Source: Candidatus Microgenomatus sp. (GTDB lineage: Bacteria > Patescibacteriota > Minisyncoccia > UBA6257 > GWB1-50-10). From it: 64,000 nucleotides of DNA. Shown in pieces: positions 12,334 through 53,640 of the stretch. The stretch spans positions 389,152 through 453,151 of the forward strand of contig DYGI01000001.1 of NCBI GenBank assembly GCA_020724805.1, written 5' to 3'. A model generated the notes under the pieces. It ran no database searches and was not told the origin of the DNA. It saw only the letters and a list, made by a program, of their open reading frames with translations. A program made the position numbers and the translations under genes. Position 1 is the first letter of the stretch, and each line of letters opens with the position of its first letter.

Positions 12334-13277
12334 CCGCACGCGTATCGGCACTACTACTTGCGGCGCTCATTATGGTTTCTGCGGCGCTCACGCGAACCGG
12401 CGGAGAGGGAGCGTTACCGGTGGAACGCGCTCCCGAGGCAAGCGCGGAAGCGCAAACTCCTCCTTTGTACTATTCGTTTCAGGCGAATGCGTTTTCCGCG
12501 GGCACAGGAGCCGGACGCGGACCGTCCCGCGACTGGAATGTACTCGACCCTCGCGTGGATGCGGCGGCAGCGCTTGTGTATTCGCTGGACGATGAAGTGA
12601 TACTCCTCGGTGCGCGCACGTATGCGCGTTGGCCCATGGCATCACTCACCAAACTTCTCACCTCGGTAGTGGTCGCGGAAAATATCGGGTACCACAAACG
12701 CGTGCCCATGACGGAGACCGCGATAGCGACGGAAGGAAACGGCGTGATGTTCAATCCCAACGAAGAATTTGCCGCACGCGATCTCGCGCGGATAATGATA
12801 ATGGCCTCGTCGAACGACGCCGCGGTCGCTTTCGAAGAGCATGTGGGAGGAAGGGAAGAGTTTTTGAAATTGCTCCGTGGCGCGGCGACAAAACTCGGCA
12901 TGGACCAGACCACACTTTCGGATGCCGCAGGTCTTTCCGCCGCCAATGAATCGTCCGCGAGCGACCTTATGAAGCTTGTGAAATATCTTGCCTCTTCGCG
13001 TCCGGAGATACTCGAATGGACGCGCCACGCGACATTCATCTTTCAACCCACCAATGACCCCACGAGCCGCACCGTGGCGAACATCGTACCGTTCGCCGAC
13101 GACCCCCGGTTCCTTGGCGGAAAAACGGGTACGCTCCCCGAAGCGCGGGAGAATTTTGCGGGACTATTTTCACTCGGCGGACGTCGGGTGGTGGTGGTTA
13201 TTCTCGGAAGTCGCGACCGGGTGCGCGAGGTGAATGAACTTCTTGATTGGACCATGCGTGCATACCACTTCAATTGA
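12330..13277 (+). CDS. D-alanyl-D-alanine carboxypeptidase (S11, PBP5-like)
   Basis: Signal peptide; SxxK (ASLTK), SxN (SSND), KTG (KTGT) motifs. Confidence 0.8.
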   Translation: MTARVSALLLAALIMVSAALTRTGGEGALPVERAPEASAEAQTPPLYYSFQANAFSAGTGAGRGPSRDWNVLDPRVDAAAALVYSLDDEVILLGARTYARWPMASLTKLLTSVVVAENIGYHKRVPMTETAIATEGNGVMFNPNEEFAARDLARIMIMASSNDAAVAFEEHVGGREEFLKLLRGAATKLGMDQTTLSDAAGLSAANESSASDLMKLVKYLASSRPEILEWTRHATFIFQPTNDPTSRTVANIVPFADDPRFLGGKTGTLPEARENFAGLFSLGGRRVVVVILGSRDRVREVNELLDWTMRAYHFN

Positions 13278-13283
13278 GGATAT

Positions 13284-13410
13284 GGATCCCGTTAGAAGCA
13301 AAAAACAACATTTCACCGTACTATGATAACTTTCTATATTTATTCTGTAGGTCGAGCAAGGCCGCATGCTACGGGTGTGCGCGTGGGCACACCCTGCTTC
13401 TAACGGGATG
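13284..13410 (+). promoter_or_regulatory. inverted-repeat leader element A (15-bp arms ATCCCGTTAGAAGCA / TGCTTCTAACGGGAT) enclosing the mraY start codon
   Basis: Fills the entire dacA-mraY intergenic region. The right arm contains the ATG at 13408. Homologous to 17074-17195, with a compensatory arm substitution between the two copies. Confidence 0.6.
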
Positions 13411-14454
13411 GAAATTTTCGAAGCGATTCGCATTCTCATACTCTTCGCGTTCGCATTCGTGGTGGCGCTTCTTCTCACGCCTTTTGTGCTTCATCGTCTT
13501 GTGGCATGGAATGTGCGCAAACGGAACATCCGAGACGCTACCTCCGCGCCCGTTTTCCACAGTTTGCATAAGGATAAGGGGAACACGCCGACCATGGGCG
13601 GCATCATCATTTGGGCTACCGTGCTTGGGCTTGCGGCGCTCTTTTTTCTCGCGAATCAGTTTTTTAACGGGTTCGCATCATATTTCGATTTTGTGAATCG
13701 CGCGGAAACCTATCTTCCGCTTGCCGCACTCGCGTTCGCGGCGGTGGTAGGTTTGGTGGACGACCTTTTCGGAATTCTCGGCAAAGGGCCGCACGGAGGC
13801 GGACTCACCGTGCCCCAGAAGCTCGTGCTCTACACCGCCGTGTCCGCCATCGGTGCGTGGTGGTTCTTCGTGCGCCTCGGGTGGGACACCATTTTTGTGC
13901 CGTTCGTTGGCCACGTGGTGGTCGGATGGTGGTATGTTCCCATTTTCATGTTCATCATCATCGCGTCGGCATTCTCCACGAACGAAACGGACGGTTTGGA
14001 CGGACTTGCAGCGGGAGTACTCTTTTTCGCATTCGGTGCGTTTGCGGTAGTTTCTTTCATTCTCCATCGCTACGACCTTGCGGCGATGAACGCGGTTATT
14101 TTGGGAGCGCTCCTCGCGTTTCTTTGGTTCAATATTTATCCCGCGAGGTTTTTTATGGGCGATACCGGGAGTATGGCGCTCGGGATAACCTTGGGGGTTA
14201 TGGCGATGCTCACCAACACGGTGTTCTTCCTCCCGTTTTTCGGTGCGATACTGGTTTTTGAATCGTTTTCGGTCATCATACAGCTCATTTCCAAGAAAAT
14301 TCGAGGGAAAAAGATATTTCTCTCGACTCCCATTCACCATCACTTCGAAGCGTTAGGATGGCCGGAAACGCAGGTCACCATGCGCTTTTGGTTCGTTTCA
14401 GCGGTGGCAACGATTCTTGGATTGGTGCTTTTTTTCCTCGCGCGATTCATTTGA
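13408..14454 (+). CDS. mraY: phospho-N-acetylmuramoyl-pentapeptide transferase
   Basis: 10 TM helices; NETDGLDGLA and FMGDTGS motifs. Confidence 0.9.
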   Translation: MEIFEAIRILILFAFAFVVALLLTPFVLHRLVAWNVRKRNIRDATSAPVFHSLHKDKGNTPTMGGIIIWATVLGLAALFFLANQFFNGFASYFDFVNRAETYLPLAALAFAAVVGLVDDLFGILGKGPHGGGLTVPQKLVLYTAVSAIGAWWFFVRLGWDTIFVPFVGHVVVGWWYVPIFMFIIIASAFSTNETDGLDGLAAGVLFFAFGAFAVVSFILHRYDLAAMNAVILGALLAFLWFNIYPARFFMGDTGSMALGITLGVMAMLTNTVFFLPFFGAILVFESFSVIIQLISKKIRGKKIFLSTPIHHHFEALGWPETQVTMRFWFVSAVATILGLVLFFLARFI

Positions 14455-14473
14455 TAGGTATAATAAAGGCGTC

Positions 14474-15946
14474 ATGACGACGCTCATTCAGGGCGGGATG
14501 GTGTACGACGGTACCGGCGGCACGCCGTATGAGGCGGACGTGTTGTTGCACGGAAAAACCATCACGCGCATCGGTCGACGCCTTTCGGTCAGGGCAAATC
14601 ACATCATCGAAGCGCGCGGCGGGCTCGTAACTCCGGGATTTGTGGATATCGCAAGTTACGCCGACCATTATCGAGCGCTCTTTGCCGATCCCGCAGGCAC
14701 CGAGTCATTGATTCGCGGTATCACCTCGCTTGTGGTGGGCCACGGCGGCGCTTCCATAGCGCCACTTTTTGCATGGAGCATTCTTCCGGAACGTTGGTGG
14801 GGGAATACCATCTCTCCCGCCGCCCACGCGGCCATGGTAAGCGAAGTATTTTCGTTGCTCCAAGGAAGAATAGGAGTGAATGTGGGAACACTCGTAGGGC
14901 ACGCGACGGTGCGCGAGGGAATTACCCACGGAACGCCGCGCGATCTCACCGAGCGTGAACTCGAACTTCTTTCCTACACTCTTCGCCATGCGCTTAAGGA
15001 AGGCGCACTCGGCATCTCCGTGAACTTGGAATATCCACGTACCACGCAAGTGCCGCGAAAAGAATTGATGCGCGTGGCGCATATTGCCGAGGAATTTCAT
15101 GCGGTTCTCTCGCTTCGACTTCGTTCGCGCACCGATCATGTGAAAGAGTCCCTCGCGGAAGTGCTTGCGCTTTCGGATGCGACGGAGGTAAATCTTCTTC
15201 TCACCGACGTTGAGCCTCACTCGACCGAAGAGGCGGCATACCGTGCGCTCATGAACCAAGTTACTCGCGCGTCAGCGGATCACCATGTGCACTTTACCAC
15301 CTCGGGAAGCGGTGTTGCCGCGTTCCCTCTTCCACTGCTTCTCCCGTCACATTGGCACGAGAAGGAATGGGATACCATGCGGGCGCGCCTCACCGACCGC
15401 GCGATGCGTGAGGAACTTCGTTCGCATCTTGTACGCTATCGCGACATTCCGATGTATGTGGCCGCCGTGGCGGACCCTTCGCTTAAACTTTTTGAAGGCA
15501 CGCCTTTCGCAAAGTGGTCTCTCCATGAGCACGTGCCTTTCGAAGAAGCGCTCATGCGACTCATGGAAGTTACCGGATTTCGGGCGGTGCTTGCGATGAA
15601 CGTGGGAGAGCCGGAGCTTGCTCGTGTCTTCGCGGCTCACGATCGCGCATTGATCGCTTCCGGTGAAGCGGCGGCGCCGGCTCTCGAATCTTCCGCGCAT
15701 TTAAAACTGCTCGCATTCAAAGATGGAGGTACATTCCCGCTCGAGCAACGCATCGCGAAAATGACGGGTGCGCCTGCAAAAAAGTTGGGCCTCTCCCGCC
15801 GCGGCATCCTTAAAGAAGGGTACTATGCCGACGTGCTCGTCATTGAAAAAGGAACGGTTCGCGAGACATTCGTGAATGGCGTTCGGGCCATTGCCGCCGG
15901 CGCGCCGACCGGCGAGCGGAGCGGGACGATACTTACGCGCGCATGA
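14474..15946 (+). CDS. amidohydrolase-superfamily protein, D-aminoacylase-like, with degenerate metal-binding motif
   Basis: N-terminal GGxVxDGTG...VxPGFVD block, but the HxH is replaced by ASYADH. C-terminal ...GYYADVLVIE...FVNG... is typical of N-acyl-D-amino-acid deacylases. Occupies the murD position. Confidence 0.6.
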   Translation: MTTLIQGGMVYDGTGGTPYEADVLLHGKTITRIGRRLSVRANHIIEARGGLVTPGFVDIASYADHYRALFADPAGTESLIRGITSLVVGHGGASIAPLFAWSILPERWWGNTISPAAHAAMVSEVFSLLQGRIGVNVGTLVGHATVREGITHGTPRDLTERELELLSYTLRHALKEGALGISVNLEYPRTTQVPRKELMRVAHIAEEFHAVLSLRLRSRTDHVKESLAEVLALSDATEVNLLLTDVEPHSTEEAAYRALMNQVTRASADHHVHFTTSGSGVAAFPLPLLLPSHWHEKEWDTMRARLTDRAMREELRSHLVRYRDIPMYVAAVADPSLKLFEGTPFAKWSLHEHVPFEEALMRLMEVTGFRAVLAMNVGEPELARVFAAHDRALIASGEAAAPALESSAHLKLLAFKDGGTFPLEQRIAKMTGAPAKKLGLSRRGILKEGYYADVLVIEKGTVRETFVNGVRAIAAGAPTGERSGTILTRA

Positions 15947-17073
15947 CGTCCGGAGGACTTTTTCGTACGCGTCCTCGCGGACTTCCAGATTTTGCGTTCG
16001 TCGGCGCGGTCGCCGCGCTCGTTATTTTCGGTCTCGTGATGCTCGCATCCGCCTCTTCCGACCTTGCACAAAAGCAGTATGGCGAAAGCTATTATCTTCT
16101 TCTCCACCAAATCACGAACGGCCTTTCGGTTGGCATCGTGGGTTTTCTTGCGGGCGCTTTCATTTACTATCGGACATGGGATAAGTTCTCTGTTTATATT
16201 CTCGCGGCGGGACTTATCGCGCTCCTTTTGATTTTCACGCCACTCGGAATTGCGCAGAAAGGAGGGGAGCGATGGGTGAATCTCGGTGCGTTCTCGTTCC
16301 AACCAGGTGAATTGGCGAAGCTCGCGCTCATCATTTATCTCGCGAGCTGGCTTGCGCGCACGCCGCTTCGCGCGAAGAATTTCATGGAAGGATTCATGCC
16401 ATTCCTTGTGCTCGTCGGCGCGGTCGTGGGGCTACTCCTCGCGCAACCCGCCACATCCACCGCCATCATTATCGTGGTGGGCGCGCTTACGTTGTATTTT
16501 ATGGGCGGCGCACGTATCCGATTTTTTGCACTCGCTGCGCTTCTTGTGGTCGTCGGATTCTCGCTTCTTTTCGCAGTGGGAGGGAAAGATGATTACCGCG
16601 TGCGGCGCATTATGACGTTTTTTAATCAAGAGGCAACCGACCCGCTGGATGAGGGATATCATATCGATCAGACGAAGTTCGCCATCGGCGCGGGAGGACT
16701 TACAGGTGTTGGCTTCGGCCAGTCCGTGACAAAACTTTATTCGCTTCCGGAGCGCATCGGCGATTCCATTTTTGCCATCATCGGCGAAGAATTCGGTTTC
16801 GTAGGATCCGTCGCGCTCATCGCGCTATTCGCGGTGTACGTGATTCGTGGATTCGCCATCGCGAAGCGGGCGCCGGATTCGTTTGGGCGTCTTACGACCA
16901 TCGGTTTCGTCACCATCATCGGATTCCAGGCGTTCGTGAACATCGCCGCTATCTCGGGACTCGTTCCGCTCACCGGCGTGCCGCTTCCGTTCATTTCGTA
17001 CGGCGGCACCGCCCTCGCGGTTTTTTTGACGATGTCGGGTATCGTCGTTAACATTTCAAGACATTCCCGATGA
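15943..17073 (+). CDS. ftsW: SEDS-family peptidoglycan glycosyltransferase FtsW/RodA
   Basis: 10 TM helices, conserved PGELAK and GGTA motifs, dcw context. Confidence 0.85.
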   Translation: MTSGGLFRTRPRGLPDFAFVGAVAALVIFGLVMLASASSDLAQKQYGESYYLLLHQITNGLSVGIVGFLAGAFIYYRTWDKFSVYILAAGLIALLLIFTPLGIAQKGGERWVNLGAFSFQPGELAKLALIIYLASWLARTPLRAKNFMEGFMPFLVLVGAVVGLLLAQPATSTAIIIVVGALTLYFMGGARIRFFALAALLVVVGFSLLFAVGGKDDYRVRRIMTFFNQEATDPLDEGYHIDQTKFAIGAGGLTGVGFGQSVTKLYSLPERIGDSIFAIIGEEFGFVGSVALIALFAVYVIRGFAIAKRAPDSFGRLTTIGFVTIIGFQAFVNIAAISGLVPLTGVPLPFISYGGTALAVFLTMSGIVVNISRHSR

Positions 17074-17195
17074 ATCCCGTTAGAGGCAACTAAATTACTA
17101 TCCAATGATTTACCGTATCAACAACGCACTATCAAATCAAAAGGTCTCGCGGCACAACTACGGTTGCCTTGTGGCGACCTGCCTCTAACGGGATG
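17074..17195 (+). promoter_or_regulatory. inverted-repeat leader element B (arms ATCCCGTTAGAGGCA / TGCCTCTAACGGGAT) enclosing the murG start codon
   Basis: Fills the ftsW-murG intergenic region. Right arm contains the ATG at 17193. Shares internal motifs with element A (ttYaccgta, ctat, ggtc, ctacgg). Confidence 0.6.
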
Positions 17196-18317
17196 AACAC
17201 CTTTCGCATCGCACTTACGGGAGGAGGTACCGGCGGACATGTATTTCCGCTCGCCGCGGTTGCCGATGAATTGCTGCGCATGGGGCAGGGGACCGTGGAA
17301 CTTCGCTACTACGGGCCTACGAGCGTATGGAATGAGATGCTCGCGGCGCGCGACATTCGCACTTCGCATATCGCGGGCGCAAAGCTCCGCCGCTATGCGT
17401 CGTTGCAAAATATTATCGACATCCCAAAGTTTTTTATCGGCCTACTCGAGGCGTTCGTAAAGCTCTATTTCTGGATGCCGGACGCGGTGTTTTCAAAAGG
17501 AGGTCCGGGCGCGTTGCCGGTTGTGTGCGCGGCCGCATGGTATCGAATTCCCATCGTGGTCCATGAATCGGATGCAGTGCCGGGACTCACGAACCGCATC
17601 TCGGCAAAATTCGCGAAAAAGATTTGTATAGCGTGGCGAAACGCTGCGGCATATTTCCCTGCGCGGAAAGTGATGGTCACCGGAAACCCGATACGTGCCG
17701 CGCTTGCGACTACCATGTTGGAGCGGCGTGCGGCAAAATCGCAACTCGGCGCGGACCCGGATACGCCTCTCCTCCTTGCGCTTGGAGGTTCGCAGGGCGC
17801 AAAAATATTGAACGACTTTGTGGACGCGGCGCTCCCGATGCTTCTTGCGCTCTGCCAGGTGTATCACCAGACCGGGAAGGGGAACGTGCCTTCCGTGAGC
17901 GACCATATGGGCGCTCGTCCCGCCGCACCTTCGCGGTATACCGCGCGGGATTTTATGGATGAACGGGAGCTTGCCACTGCGCTTCGTGCCGCCGACCTCG
18001 TGCTCACGCGGGCAGGTGCAGGCGCGATCTATGAATGTGCGGCTGCGGGCGTTCCCGCCATTCTTGTACCGCTCGCAAATGGCGCGAACGATCACCAAAG
18101 AGCGAATGCGGCCGAGTATGTCGCTTCGGGCGCCGCATTGGTCATTGAAGAAAACAATCTTACTCCGAACCTCGTGGCGGGAGAAATAAAAAAACTTCTC
18201 GCGGGCGGCGAGAAGTTGAAAATGATGGGGGAGAGGGCGCGCGCATTTTTTAAACCAAGCGCCGCAGAGGAAATCGCACGCGCAATCGTTACGGCGACCG
18301 GTGCTCAAATCAAATAA
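17193..18317 (+). CDS. murG: undecaprenyldiphospho-muramoylpentapeptide beta-N-acetylglucosaminyltransferase
   Basis: N-terminal GGGTGGHVFP motif, GT28 family architecture. Confidence 0.9.
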   Translation: MNTFRIALTGGGTGGHVFPLAAVADELLRMGQGTVELRYYGPTSVWNEMLAARDIRTSHIAGAKLRRYASLQNIIDIPKFFIGLLEAFVKLYFWMPDAVFSKGGPGALPVVCAAAWYRIPIVVHESDAVPGLTNRISAKFAKKICIAWRNAAAYFPARKVMVTGNPIRAALATTMLERRAAKSQLGADPDTPLLLALGGSQGAKILNDFVDAALPMLLALCQVYHQTGKGNVPSVSDHMGARPAAPSRYTARDFMDERELATALRAADLVLTRAGAGAIYECAAAGVPAILVPLANGANDHQRANAAEYVASGAALVIEENNLTPNLVAGEIKKLLAGGEKLKMMGERARAFFKPSAAEEIARAIVTATGAQIK

Positions 18318-52005: not shown

Positions 52006-52275
52006 TTAGGTATCTTTGCTGATCGCCTGTATGGTTTCGGCTGCTGGGCCTAAAGCGTTTACTATCTCTATTTTTTCCTTTCCATAATGATCCCTCAAGC
52101 CCTTTAAGAGTTCGTCAGCATAAGAAGGCGTTAGGACCTCTACGCCAGAAAAGTCTAAAACAATATTCTCCTTGTCCGCTGAGCCGTTGATAATCTGTCG
52201 CAGACGCAAAAGCGCCTCCCTACCGGTAGGTCTACCATTCAGCACAGTTCCAAATTTTTGCATCATTACCGTCAT
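52006..52275 (-). CDS. STAS-domain protein (anti-sigma-factor-antagonist-like, DUF4325-type)
   Basis: ...ENIVLDFSGVEVLTPSYADELL... is the typical STAS beta-alpha core; 89 aa. Confidence 0.55.
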   Translation of the reverse strand: MTVMMQKFGTVLNGRPTGREALLRLRQIINGSADKENIVLDFSGVEVLTPSYADELLKGLRDHYGKEKIEIVNALGPAAETIQAISKDT

Positions 52276-53259: not shown

Positions 53260-53400
53260 GGTTCGAACATCGTTCAGGCCCCGCAGCCCTTCTTCGCTTC
53301 GCTCATCAGGGCCTATGGCATCTCTTGAGCGAAGAAGGCACTGAGGAATCCTGAGTATGAACGAAGGACGACGAAGTGATAAAATTCGCTTGTGAGTCAC
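53260..53400 (-). repeat. island-boundary element copy 3 (tRNA-Gln 3'-end-like core 53260-53292 plus conserved hairpins)
   Basis: GGTTCGAACATCGTTCAGGCCCCGCAGCCC then ccttcttcgc...gaagaagg hairpin. About 93% identical over 64 nt to the reverse complement of 4190-4246. Confidence 0.7.
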
Positions 53401-53640
53401 TTCGTTTATATTCTCACATGTGCCGATGGTTCACTGTACGTGGGATGTACCAATAACCTTGAACGTAGAATAAAGCAACACAACGATTCTAAGTGGGGCG
53501 CACACTATACAAAACTAAGACGCCCCGTAGCACTTGTGCACCAAGAAGAATTTCCAACCTTACGTGAGGCGCGACGACGAGAAACTGAAATCAAAGGTTG
53601 GCGCCATGAGAAGAAACTAACACTCATTAATAAGACCTAA
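53392..53640 (+). CDS. GIY-YIG nuclease domain protein
   Basis: FVYILTC...SLYVGCTNNLERRIKQH; GTG start; low GC. Confidence 0.7.
   Translation: MSHFVYILTCADGSLYVGCTNNLERRIKQHNDSKWGAHYTKLRRPVALVHQEEFPTLREARRRETEIKGWRHEKKLTLINKT

Follow-up and report, generated by a model that had tools for sequence, protein, structure and literature searches.

Inverted-repeat elements at the start codons of mraY and murG in a Candidatus Microgenomatus genome: probable short copies of a mobile family with a GIY-YIG nuclease gene

A stretch of 64,000 nucleotides from a Candidatus Microgenomatus sp. genome (contig DYGI01000001.1; the whole stretch is called the window below) contains two inverted-repeat elements, E1 and E2, which lie directly in front of mraY and murG, respectively. 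In the original prediction, they were taken for two copies of a leader belonging to these genes. We find that they are indeed copies of one element, but a dedicated leader does not fit: there are relatives without the element, the genes downstream of other copies are unrelated, and the inverted repeats, covarying target duplication, patchy occupancy, and tandem and nested copies are hallmarks of mobile insertion. E1 and E2 are probably non-autonomous copies, resembling miniature inverted-repeat transposable elements (MITEs), of a mobile family whose full-length form of about 275 bp carries a GIY-YIG nuclease gene. The family is apparently widespread and undescribed: no description of it was found in the searchable full text, in which subscription journals are covered in small part, so that a prior description is possible.

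The two copies in the window

By Pfam assignment, the gene order is DD-carboxypeptidase (dac), E1, MraY, and FtsW, E2, MurG. Both elements can be drawn with two helices, P1, formed by the arms, and P2, a hairpin next to the right arm. Their parts are as follows.

13275-13277, + strand: stop codon TGA of dac
13283-13286, + strand: E1 left target copy, TGGA; ATGGA at 13282-13286 is the relic of the original mraY start
13287-13408, + strand: E1 element proper, 122 nt, with P1 13286-13300/13395-13409 and TAC at 13370-13372
13373-13394, + strand: E1 P2, GGGTGTGC-GCGTGG-GCACACCC, stem 13373-13380/13387-13394
13408-13412, + strand: rebuilt mraY start; A13408 is an element base and TGGA 13409-13412 the right target copy
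17070-17074, + strand: ATGAA (A17070 plus TGAA), relic of the original murG ATG; the empty orthologue L103 reads GCG ATGA GCAAC
17071-17074, + strand: E2 left target copy, TGAA, assigned from the target-duplication statistics; it holds the ftsW stop TGA 17071-17073
17074-17088, + strand: E2 P1 5' arm, ATCCCGTTAGAGGCA, pairing with 17180-17194
17075-17193, + strand: E2 element proper, 119 nt, with T...A termini; the terminal Y-R pair is the element's own
17089-17161, + strand: E2 interior, AT-rich, with the conserved TAC 17159-17161 at the foot of P2
17162-17179, + strand: E2 P2 hairpin, GGTTGCC-TTGT-GGCGACC, stem 17162-17168/17173-17179 of 7 bp with one U.G, abutting the right arm; the counterpart of P2 in full-length elements
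17180-17194, + strand: E2 P1 3' arm, TGCCTCTAACGGGAT, pairing with the 5' arm
17193-17197, + strand: rebuilt murG start; A17193 is the terminal base of the element and TGAA 17194-17197 the right target copy

In a repeat search, the 15-nt arms of both elements are 100% complementary, with 94 nt between them in E1 and 91 nt in E2. The exact 13-mer core of the arms occurs within the window at these four arm positions only, and the arms of E1 and E2 differ by a single A/G exchange that is matched by T/C on the opposite arm. Folding energies lie far below those of shuffled sequences (z = -6.3 and -6.5 for the two copies). With a covariance model trained on copies from other genomes, E2 scores 87.4 bits and E1 78.4 bits (E about 1e-15 and 1e-13), and the score differs by strand, with 87.4 bits on the plus strand against 39.2 on the minus strand for E2 (rounded values for E1 and E2 together: 87/78 against 39/37). 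A model from 70 copies found no further copy in the window beyond E1 and E2. The inverted repeats as products of chance are thereby excluded, and the identification of the two loci as copies of one element stands.

The left arm of E2 begins, as predicted, at the base directly after the ftsW reading frame, which ends at 17073 (Pfam FTSW_RODA_SPOVE, E=1.4e-91). The murG start is the ATG at 17193-17195, since the Pfam match to Glyco_transf_28 extends from residue 6 onward and the same Met is used by orthologues that lack the element. The idea that the right arm supplies this ATG is half correct: the A comes from the element, while the TG belongs to the 4-nt target duplication described below. The peptide PASNGM, which the upstream codons of both genes read from the arm, had rightly been considered an artefact of the arm sequence. 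For murG and mraY the arm is not coding. In full-length relatives, on the other hand, the right arm does encode the end of a protein, the L-S-L-T-G of the nuclease.

The interiors of the two copies show no significant similarity, for which reason we discarded the idea that they are recent duplicates of one another. No Rfam family was matched, either by the whole window at gathering thresholds or by positions 12800-17700 at permissive E-values. An intrinsic terminator was also considered and rejected, because the scan gave no terminator-like site at E1 or E2 and a reading frame follows the right arm directly. An integron attC site, finally, is an imperfect palindrome at the 3' end of a cassette, with RYYYAAC at its 5' side and GTTRRRY at its 3' side; here the order is reversed (GTTAGAR in the 5' arm, YTCTAAC in the 3' arm) and the element lies 5' of essential, syntenic genes.

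Empty sites and the target duplication

Homologues of MurG led to the syntenic loci L100-L104, which allow filled and empty junctions to be compared. At dac/mraY, the loci L100, L103 and L104 are empty and read stop-(1-6 nt)-ATGGARAT, and all three are empty at ftsW/murG as well, L103 having an ATGA stop/start overlap there. The corresponding junctions of the window are TGA GGAT ATGGA-T, the element, ATGGAAAT for dac/mraY, and CCG ATGAA-T, the element, ATGAAC for ftsW/murG. The empty orthologous sites have a single copy of ATGRA. L101, in turn, is filled at dac/mraY, where a homologous copy with partial decay occupies the site of E1 (alignment score to E1 75, shuffles 14.6 +/- 2.4; covariance model 48.5 bits). 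Its 129-nt ftsW/murG spacer was tried as a decayed copy of E2 and rejected (score 17 vs 15.4 +/- 2.2, no covariance-model match).

Over five concatenated proteins, L100 and L103, both empty at the two sites, are 81.6% and 80.2% identical to the window, and the filled L101 is 75.1% identical. The closest syntenic relatives are thus empty, which identifies E1 and E2 as insertions. With a more distant relative being filled, occupancy is patchy and at least two gain or loss events are needed at one nucleotide position.

The geometry of the ends can be read from the aligned short copies of the family. The outermost pair is held in 93/93 copies (T-A 87, C-G 6), and so is the second pair, L(-2):R(+2) (A-T 82, G.T 11). 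Covariation between L(-3) and R(+4) is strong (odds ratio 40, p = 1e-8), which marks the left ATGRA as a genuine copy of the host sequence. Whenever R(+1) is G, it is paired with C at L(-1), so that the right codon is GTG, and the left flank is still ATG (6/6); the first codon base is therefore not duplicated. That base on the left side, L(-6), shows the ordinary spectrum of start codons (A 76, T 11, G 7, C 0). The duplication, TGRA, is 4 nt long and exact in 52/94 copies, and a few cases have 3 or 5 nt. According to this geometry, the termini of the element are Y...R and the rebuilt start codon consists of the terminal purine plus the duplicated TG, A17193 and A13408 being the element bases in the window.

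What these alignments show is insertion at RTGRA with duplication of TGRA and rebuilding of the start codon; in Patescibacteria, the target is usually the start codon of a gene plus two bases. Where two genes overlapped, the stop of the upstream one is kept by the left target copy, as is the case for the ftsW TGA. Several features of MITEs are present: small noncoding units (119 and 122 nt for E2 and E1, with no detectable remnant of nuclease coding), terminal inverted repeats that are conserved and compensated over 70 aligned copies, a target duplication, and dispersed copies with filled and empty orthologous sites.

The family of short copies

Genomes were scanned, one per species, with the pattern CCCGTTAGNNGCA-N75-105-TGCNNCTAACGGG, in which the arms are constrained and the flanks free. 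The scan returned 99 stretches, against a chance expectation that we estimate at about 1. Altogether 108 short copies were analysed, the two of the window included. Their hosts are mostly Patescibacteria (Saccharibacteria, Parcubacteria/Paceibacteria, Jorgensen-, Harrison- and Yanofskybacteria), and a few come from metagenome-assembled genomes (MAGs) labelled Planctomycetota, Omnitrophota or Elusimicrobiota. Some genomes have several copies, for example four on one 400-kb contig. No viral contig was found as a carrier.

An ATG or GTG abutting the right arm opens a reading frame in 94/108 copies (90 of at least 60 codons and 4 cut by the contig end), whereas among all ATGRA sites of these loci 32% open one of at least 60 codons. 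The orientation relative to the gene is strongly biased, 83 vs 11. The downstream proteins (n=90) belong to 124 Pfam families, each seen in at most 2 of them, and with genes so unrelated a leader of the regulon type can be ruled out.

A number of individual loci deserve mention. A mini copy of 76 nt is nested inside another copy (L007 1620-1795), tandem copies share one common ATGCAAT junction (L038 5211-5433), and another copy begins immediately behind a full-length element (L188 about 1411-1700). Mini versions of 72-76 nt with the same arm core are also found at L063 6768-6843 and L099 869-940. The short copies in MAGs outside Patescibacteria (L003 2966-3083, L009 3871-3989, L065 6322-6439 and L090 5042-5158) are flanked by GTTGAC|...|GTTGACCC(C/T), and none of these four is at the start of a reading frame, which points either to another target, specific to the lineage, or to a larger composite repeat. 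At L208 (about 1194-1230), a VWA-domain gene opens with ccATGAA ATGAAATCCGTTCGGAGCAAAA (MKSVRSK...), of which 18/22 positions are those of 'ATGAAT + left arm + AAAA'; the N-terminus may be a fossil left arm absorbed into coding sequence. In front of the empty start of a homologous VWA gene at L210 (about 1187-1208) there is cgcaTAACGG|ATGAAAAG, similar to the end of the right arm, cTAACGGG|ATGAA. The similarity may be due to chance, to an excision that left a footprint, or to a target preference wider than assumed.

The full-length element and its nuclease

Among the arm pairs of unusual size, the locus L004 has a 275-nt version with the same arms and flanks and a 92-aa reading frame that matches Pfam GIY-YIG (E = 8.7e-17). 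About 830 nt upstream, the same locus has a short copy. The nuclease has 2723 homologues at E <= 1e-10 in several phyla, typically of 86 aa and 73-80% identical to the L004 protein. We collected 84 nuclease loci, from genomic contexts and 80 metagenome loci, comprising 79 unique elements. Both arms are present at 80/84 loci. The elements measure 272-304 bp, mostly 275-277, and consist of a single nuclease gene between 12-13-bp terminal inverted repeats, (Y)CCCGTTAGAG.. and ..CTCTAACGGG(R); the terminal Y-R pair is seen in 78/79 of the unique elements.

The right arm is coding in this form, C CTA TCT CTA ACG GG giving L-S-L-T-G as the C-terminus of the nuclease. In 55/79 elements a stop follows LSLTG directly (TGA 38, TAA 16, TAG 1), which means that the target supplies it and that at ATGA/GTGA targets it overlaps the host start. 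Exactly on a host start codon are 30/79 elements. Where there is a left NTG, it is in frame and open through the nuclease in 16/21 cases; gene calls sometimes start with MNPVR..., and P0212 has no internal Met. Read in the nuclease frame, the 3' arm of E2 is (C)TG CCT CTA ACG GGA TGA, or L-P-L-T-G-stop, which we regard as vestigial codons. The arm sequence to be expected around a cognate L[PL]LTG-type nuclease gene is CCCGTTAGARGCA.

The reading frames are intact in 72/74 cases, and with pN 0.183 and pS 0.755 (saturated), i.e. pN/pS 0.24, the nuclease is under constraint. Invariant residues of the alignment include Tyr, Tyr, Arg, His, Glu and Asn, the GIY-YIG catalytic set known from I-TevI. 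The nearest structural matches of the 86-aa protein are structure-specific nucleases of the SLX1 type. Other enzymes were also looked for: in the fetched loci no kb-scale arm pairs enclose a transposase, with solo arms at chance level only, and no other candidate enzyme was seen near copies in the loci examined.

Other small GIY-YIG genes were encountered. The genome of the window does have one, a stand-alone 82-aa reading frame at 53392-53640 (+) that begins MSHFVYILTCADGSLYVGCTNNLERRIKQHN..., is UPF0213-like, does not belong to the ...LSLTG subfamily and has no CCCGTTAGA arms. Three such genes, 31-50% identical to the L004 nuclease, lie beside tRNA genes, at L071 4848-5084 (-), L028 5199-5429 and L006 2993-3223. 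One of them is directly 3' of a tRNA and is followed by a 20-nt duplicate of the tRNA end (gaatctcctctccagcacca), and two interrupt a tRNA gene; this may represent a second insertion strategy of mini GIY-YIG cassettes.

Two variants of the full-length form should also be pointed out. A subfamily with the 5' region GATCACAAGTCATG (L136, L140, L146, L158, L164, L166, L204) has a constant left flank, ATAGGATTGGAC, and differing right flanks, so the mobile unit may here reach further to the left. At elements away from start codons (e.g. L131 2346, L134 1481, L137 1482; also L004 5826-6662), the upstream reading frame often ends at the left-arm TAG (CCCGTTAG); the arm thus donates a stop to genes whose own stop was displaced.

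Features common to the short and full-length forms

The consensus fold of 74 full-length elements consists of the two helices P1 and P2. In P2, CGGAARCGCTTY (codons LRKRF) pairs with RAAGCGYTTCC (codons KRFL), ending 1 nt before the right arm. Double compensatory changes are found at 13/25 pairs, for example GC 31/AU 26/CG 13 and UA 34/CG 33, and in P1 UA 44/CG 17/AU 11. Many of the stem changes are synonymous and have a compensating change on the opposite strand.

The short copies are built in the same way, as YAC-GG-stem-loop-stem-CC|TGC..., and 66% of them have a stem of 5 bp or more directly next to the arm, compared to 8.5% of shuffled interiors. Covariation in this P2 is abundant, with 36 distinct stems among 71, and 62/71 begin with GG. 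Several short copies keep the stem sequence of the full-length form, GGAARCG/CGYTTCC. The short and the ~275-bp forms therefore agree in arm core, terminal Y-R pair, target and P2 hairpin.

The nuclease protein profile, run against three-frame translations of the short copies, revealed no coding remnant (7/108 lie above the 95th percentile of the shuffles). A match in E2, 'ATGATTTAC = MIY', was treated as chance, as coding remnants are undetected in short copies. The nhmmer profile of the full-length element gave only arm matches in the window (E=8), and a match at 52048-52070 was likewise taken as chance, being inside a minus-strand reading frame.

Proposed mechanism and alternatives

On the reading favored here, P1 and P2 would be the cis-acting sites through which the nuclease mobilizes both the short and the full-length forms. 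The enzyme probably acts on folded DNA, a hairpin or cruciform, considering that the protein is a catalytic domain only, that its structural neighbors are SLX1-like, and that the pairing is of the Watson-Crick type with few G-U. Insertion would be directional relative to the target, because the noncoding copies are biased 83 vs 11 although either orientation rebuilds the codon. The 4-nt duplication could arise by staggered cleavage and host repair, or by microhomology-primed copying from flanking repeats. In the full-length form, the nuclease stop is usually the TGA or TAA of the target, overlapping the rebuilt host ATG, and the duplicated host ATG is often in frame with the nuclease.

A bolder version of this proposal can be formulated. 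The full-length element would then define a new class of autonomous transposons and, with its ~275 bp, be the smallest one known: an SLX1-like nuclease of 86 residues, the only protein of the element, would move the element and the copies without a reading frame directionally into RTGRA by way of folded P1/P2, capture the host start codon and translation signals to express itself, and hand translation back through the ATGA overlap. We consider this tentative, with the odds somewhat against it. If true, GIY-YIG nucleases would join the prokaryotic transposase chemistries.

What the insertions would do to host translation can be sketched from the junctions. In E1 and E2, the mraY or murG AUG would be placed at the foot of the 15-bp P1 helix. 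The upstream stop is close to the left arm, adjacent in the case of ftsW (E2) and 8 nt upstream in the case of dac (E1), and a ribosome terminating on the upstream reading frame would melt P1. A Shine-Dalgarno (SD) sequence is found in 11/50 reading frames of this genome and at none of the empty junctions, and the translation of mraY and murG, which lacks an SD, probably stays coupled to the upstream frame. As to a dedicated regulatory role, we infer that the window copies have none and are passengers.

A number of findings weigh against our reading. Apart from arms and P2, the short copies have no interior homology to the nuclease element, which is why we call them non-autonomous partners and not demonstrated deletion products. 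The window has no LSLTG-type nuclease gene, and the GCA/TGC arm variant of E1 and E2 was not found on any full-length element. About half of the full-length elements are off start codons, mostly outside Patescibacteria, and exact duplications are limited to the 52 of 94 copies noted above. G-U pairs are rare in both helices, and structure at the RNA level is indistinguishable from structure at the DNA level. The L101 copy has a partly decayed P1 and an intact mraY, so the host probably does not need the helix. Finally, GIY-YIG enzymes are hydrolytic nucleases, and to our knowledge none has been recognized as a transposase.

Some of these findings would suit a different order of events, in which the P1+P2 hairpin element is the primary mobile unit, moved by a host or unlinked enzyme, and the GIY-YIG reading frame is a later invader of the P2 loop that does not mobilize the short copies. 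Homing-endonuclease genes invade introns and inteins, and small GIY-YIG genes elsewhere in the same genomes, e.g. in tRNA genes, indicate that such reading frames are themselves invasive. The short copies share just the ends and P2 with the nuclease element, their interiors being unrelated, and their arm variant GARGCA/TGCYTC is absent from every nuclease-bearing element seen. However, arms bound nearly all nuclease genes of the subfamily (the 80/84 above), the reading frame forms part of the right arm and of both strands of P2 (KRF...KRFLSLTG), where synonymous changes are compensated, which speaks for long co-evolution and not for occasional invasion, and no other candidate enzyme was seen near the copies. 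We judge this scenario unlikely. Slightly less probable still is a host role at the RNA level, the copies being kept as useful: an RNase III-type processing site or an insulator, which would separate the cistrons and give mraY/murG a short-leader mRNA, or a bridge from stop to AUG. The Correia elements of Neisseria offer a precedent, as RNase III cleaves these MITE hairpins. Here, L(-2):R(+2) tolerates G.U in 11/93 copies and never C or U, the U.G in P2 of E2 is valid in the sense strand only, the sense orientation is strongly preferred even among noncoding copies, and SD-like purines 0-4 nt before the left ATG would be well placed for the right AUG only with the helix spanning the distance between them. 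Yet the closest relatives do without the element at both junctions, L101 has an intact mraY despite losing P1, G-U pairs are otherwise rare, and the downstream genes have nothing in common.

The remaining options assign the elements to the genes behind them. A cassette that feeds the downstream gene from its own promoter is very improbable. E1 has TTCACC-17-TATATT, matching 9/12 consensus positions, and the interiors are AT-rich, but E2 has no promoter-like match, the regional count of 4 is not above that of shuffles (2.4 +/- 1.5), the interior is not conserved across copies, and the genes belong to an operon-like cluster that is gapless in relatives. The dedicated cis-regulatory leader of peptidoglycan genes, an attenuator or riboswitch-like structure, gains some appeal from the fact that both window copies are stably folded and precede consecutive lipid I/II enzymes (mraY, murG). 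It is contradicted by the empty orthologous loci of the closest relatives and the 124 unrelated downstream families, by unconserved interiors, and by the lack of an Rfam match or terminator feature in the searches given above, and it has the smallest chance of all the possibilities considered. The mobile family with the GIY-YIG full-length form is, in our opinion, the best explanation of E1 and E2.

Comparison with known systems

The closest parallels to E1 and E2 in size and habit are Correia/NEMIS of Neisseria, enterobacterial ERIC and pneumococcal RUP. These are also ~100-150 nt long, with terminal inverted repeats, a flanking duplication and no reading frame, and occur as many dispersed copies between operon genes, with a co-transcribed hairpin and patchy orthologous occupancy. 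They derive from insertion sequences with DDE transposases, have TA or other duplications and do not target start codons. In the present family, by contrast, the element that shares the ends codes only for a GIY-YIG nuclease, the target is the RTGRA of a start codon, the terminal base rebuilds the codon, and there is the extra P2 hairpin.

Free-standing GIY-YIG homing genes differ in another way. Homing endonucleases such as those of the phage T4 seg genes and I-TevI have DNA-binding domains, one long cognate site, and gene conversion between alleles, whereas here an 86-aa catalytic domain alone is bounded by repeats, is found, together with a 4-nt duplication, at many unrelated places and has noncoding partners. 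An intact GIY-YIG reading frame is absent from the window copies and present in the full-length relatives only, and instead of one cognate site there are copies at the starts of at least 124 gene families, some of the insertions being tandem or nested. No function is assigned to UPF0213 proteins, while SLX1 is a repair enzyme that acts together with SLX4; we know of no stand-alone nuclease of the UPF0213/SLX1 type described within a repeat-bounded mobile cassette.

IS200/IS605 with PATEs and REPIN-RAYT resemble the family in being tiny, with hairpin ends that have a foot motif, short non-autonomous partners, and directional insertion beside a 4-5-nt target. They use HUH (Y1) transposases and have neither element-spanning terminal inverted repeats nor a duplication; no HUH gene was seen at the loci examined here. 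With regard to translation, the ancestral ftsW/murG junction is like ATGA-type coupling, and full-length elements recreate such an overlap between the nuclease stop and the host start. The short copies differ from both ATGA and the structure-mediated coupling of RNA phages in that stop and start are ~120 nt apart and joined only by P1. No known class of prokaryotic transposons includes a coding partner of this type or a MITE-like design that rebuilds a start codon.

Implications

For annotation, insertions of 120 nt and 275 nt on start codons concern many Patescibacteria and other uncultured lineages. They cause spurious N-terminal extensions (PASNGM..., MNPVR...) and mislabels as 'excinuclease ABC subunit C', and recognizing them corrects the start sites of essential genes, e.g. 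mraY and murG. For the study of mobile elements, a repeat-bounded cassette with one gene for an 86-aa GIY-YIG protein would be a very compact system for experimental dissection. For translation, the family provides dozens of natural SD-less starts at the foot of a stable helix beside an upstream stop, a test bed for structure-mediated translational coupling in minimal-genome organisms.

Neighboring genes

Between mraY and ftsW, at 14417-15946 (+) in the window and in the L100-L104 orthologues, there is a conserved gene of 490-509 aa in the usual place of murD in dcw clusters. It has only weak C-terminal matches to amidohydrolase Pfam families and none to Mur ligases. A PaaX_M or weakly Cas2-like reading frame occurs at L104 7281-7922, by the dcw-gltX region, and again at L120 573-1115 (-), by a full-length element.

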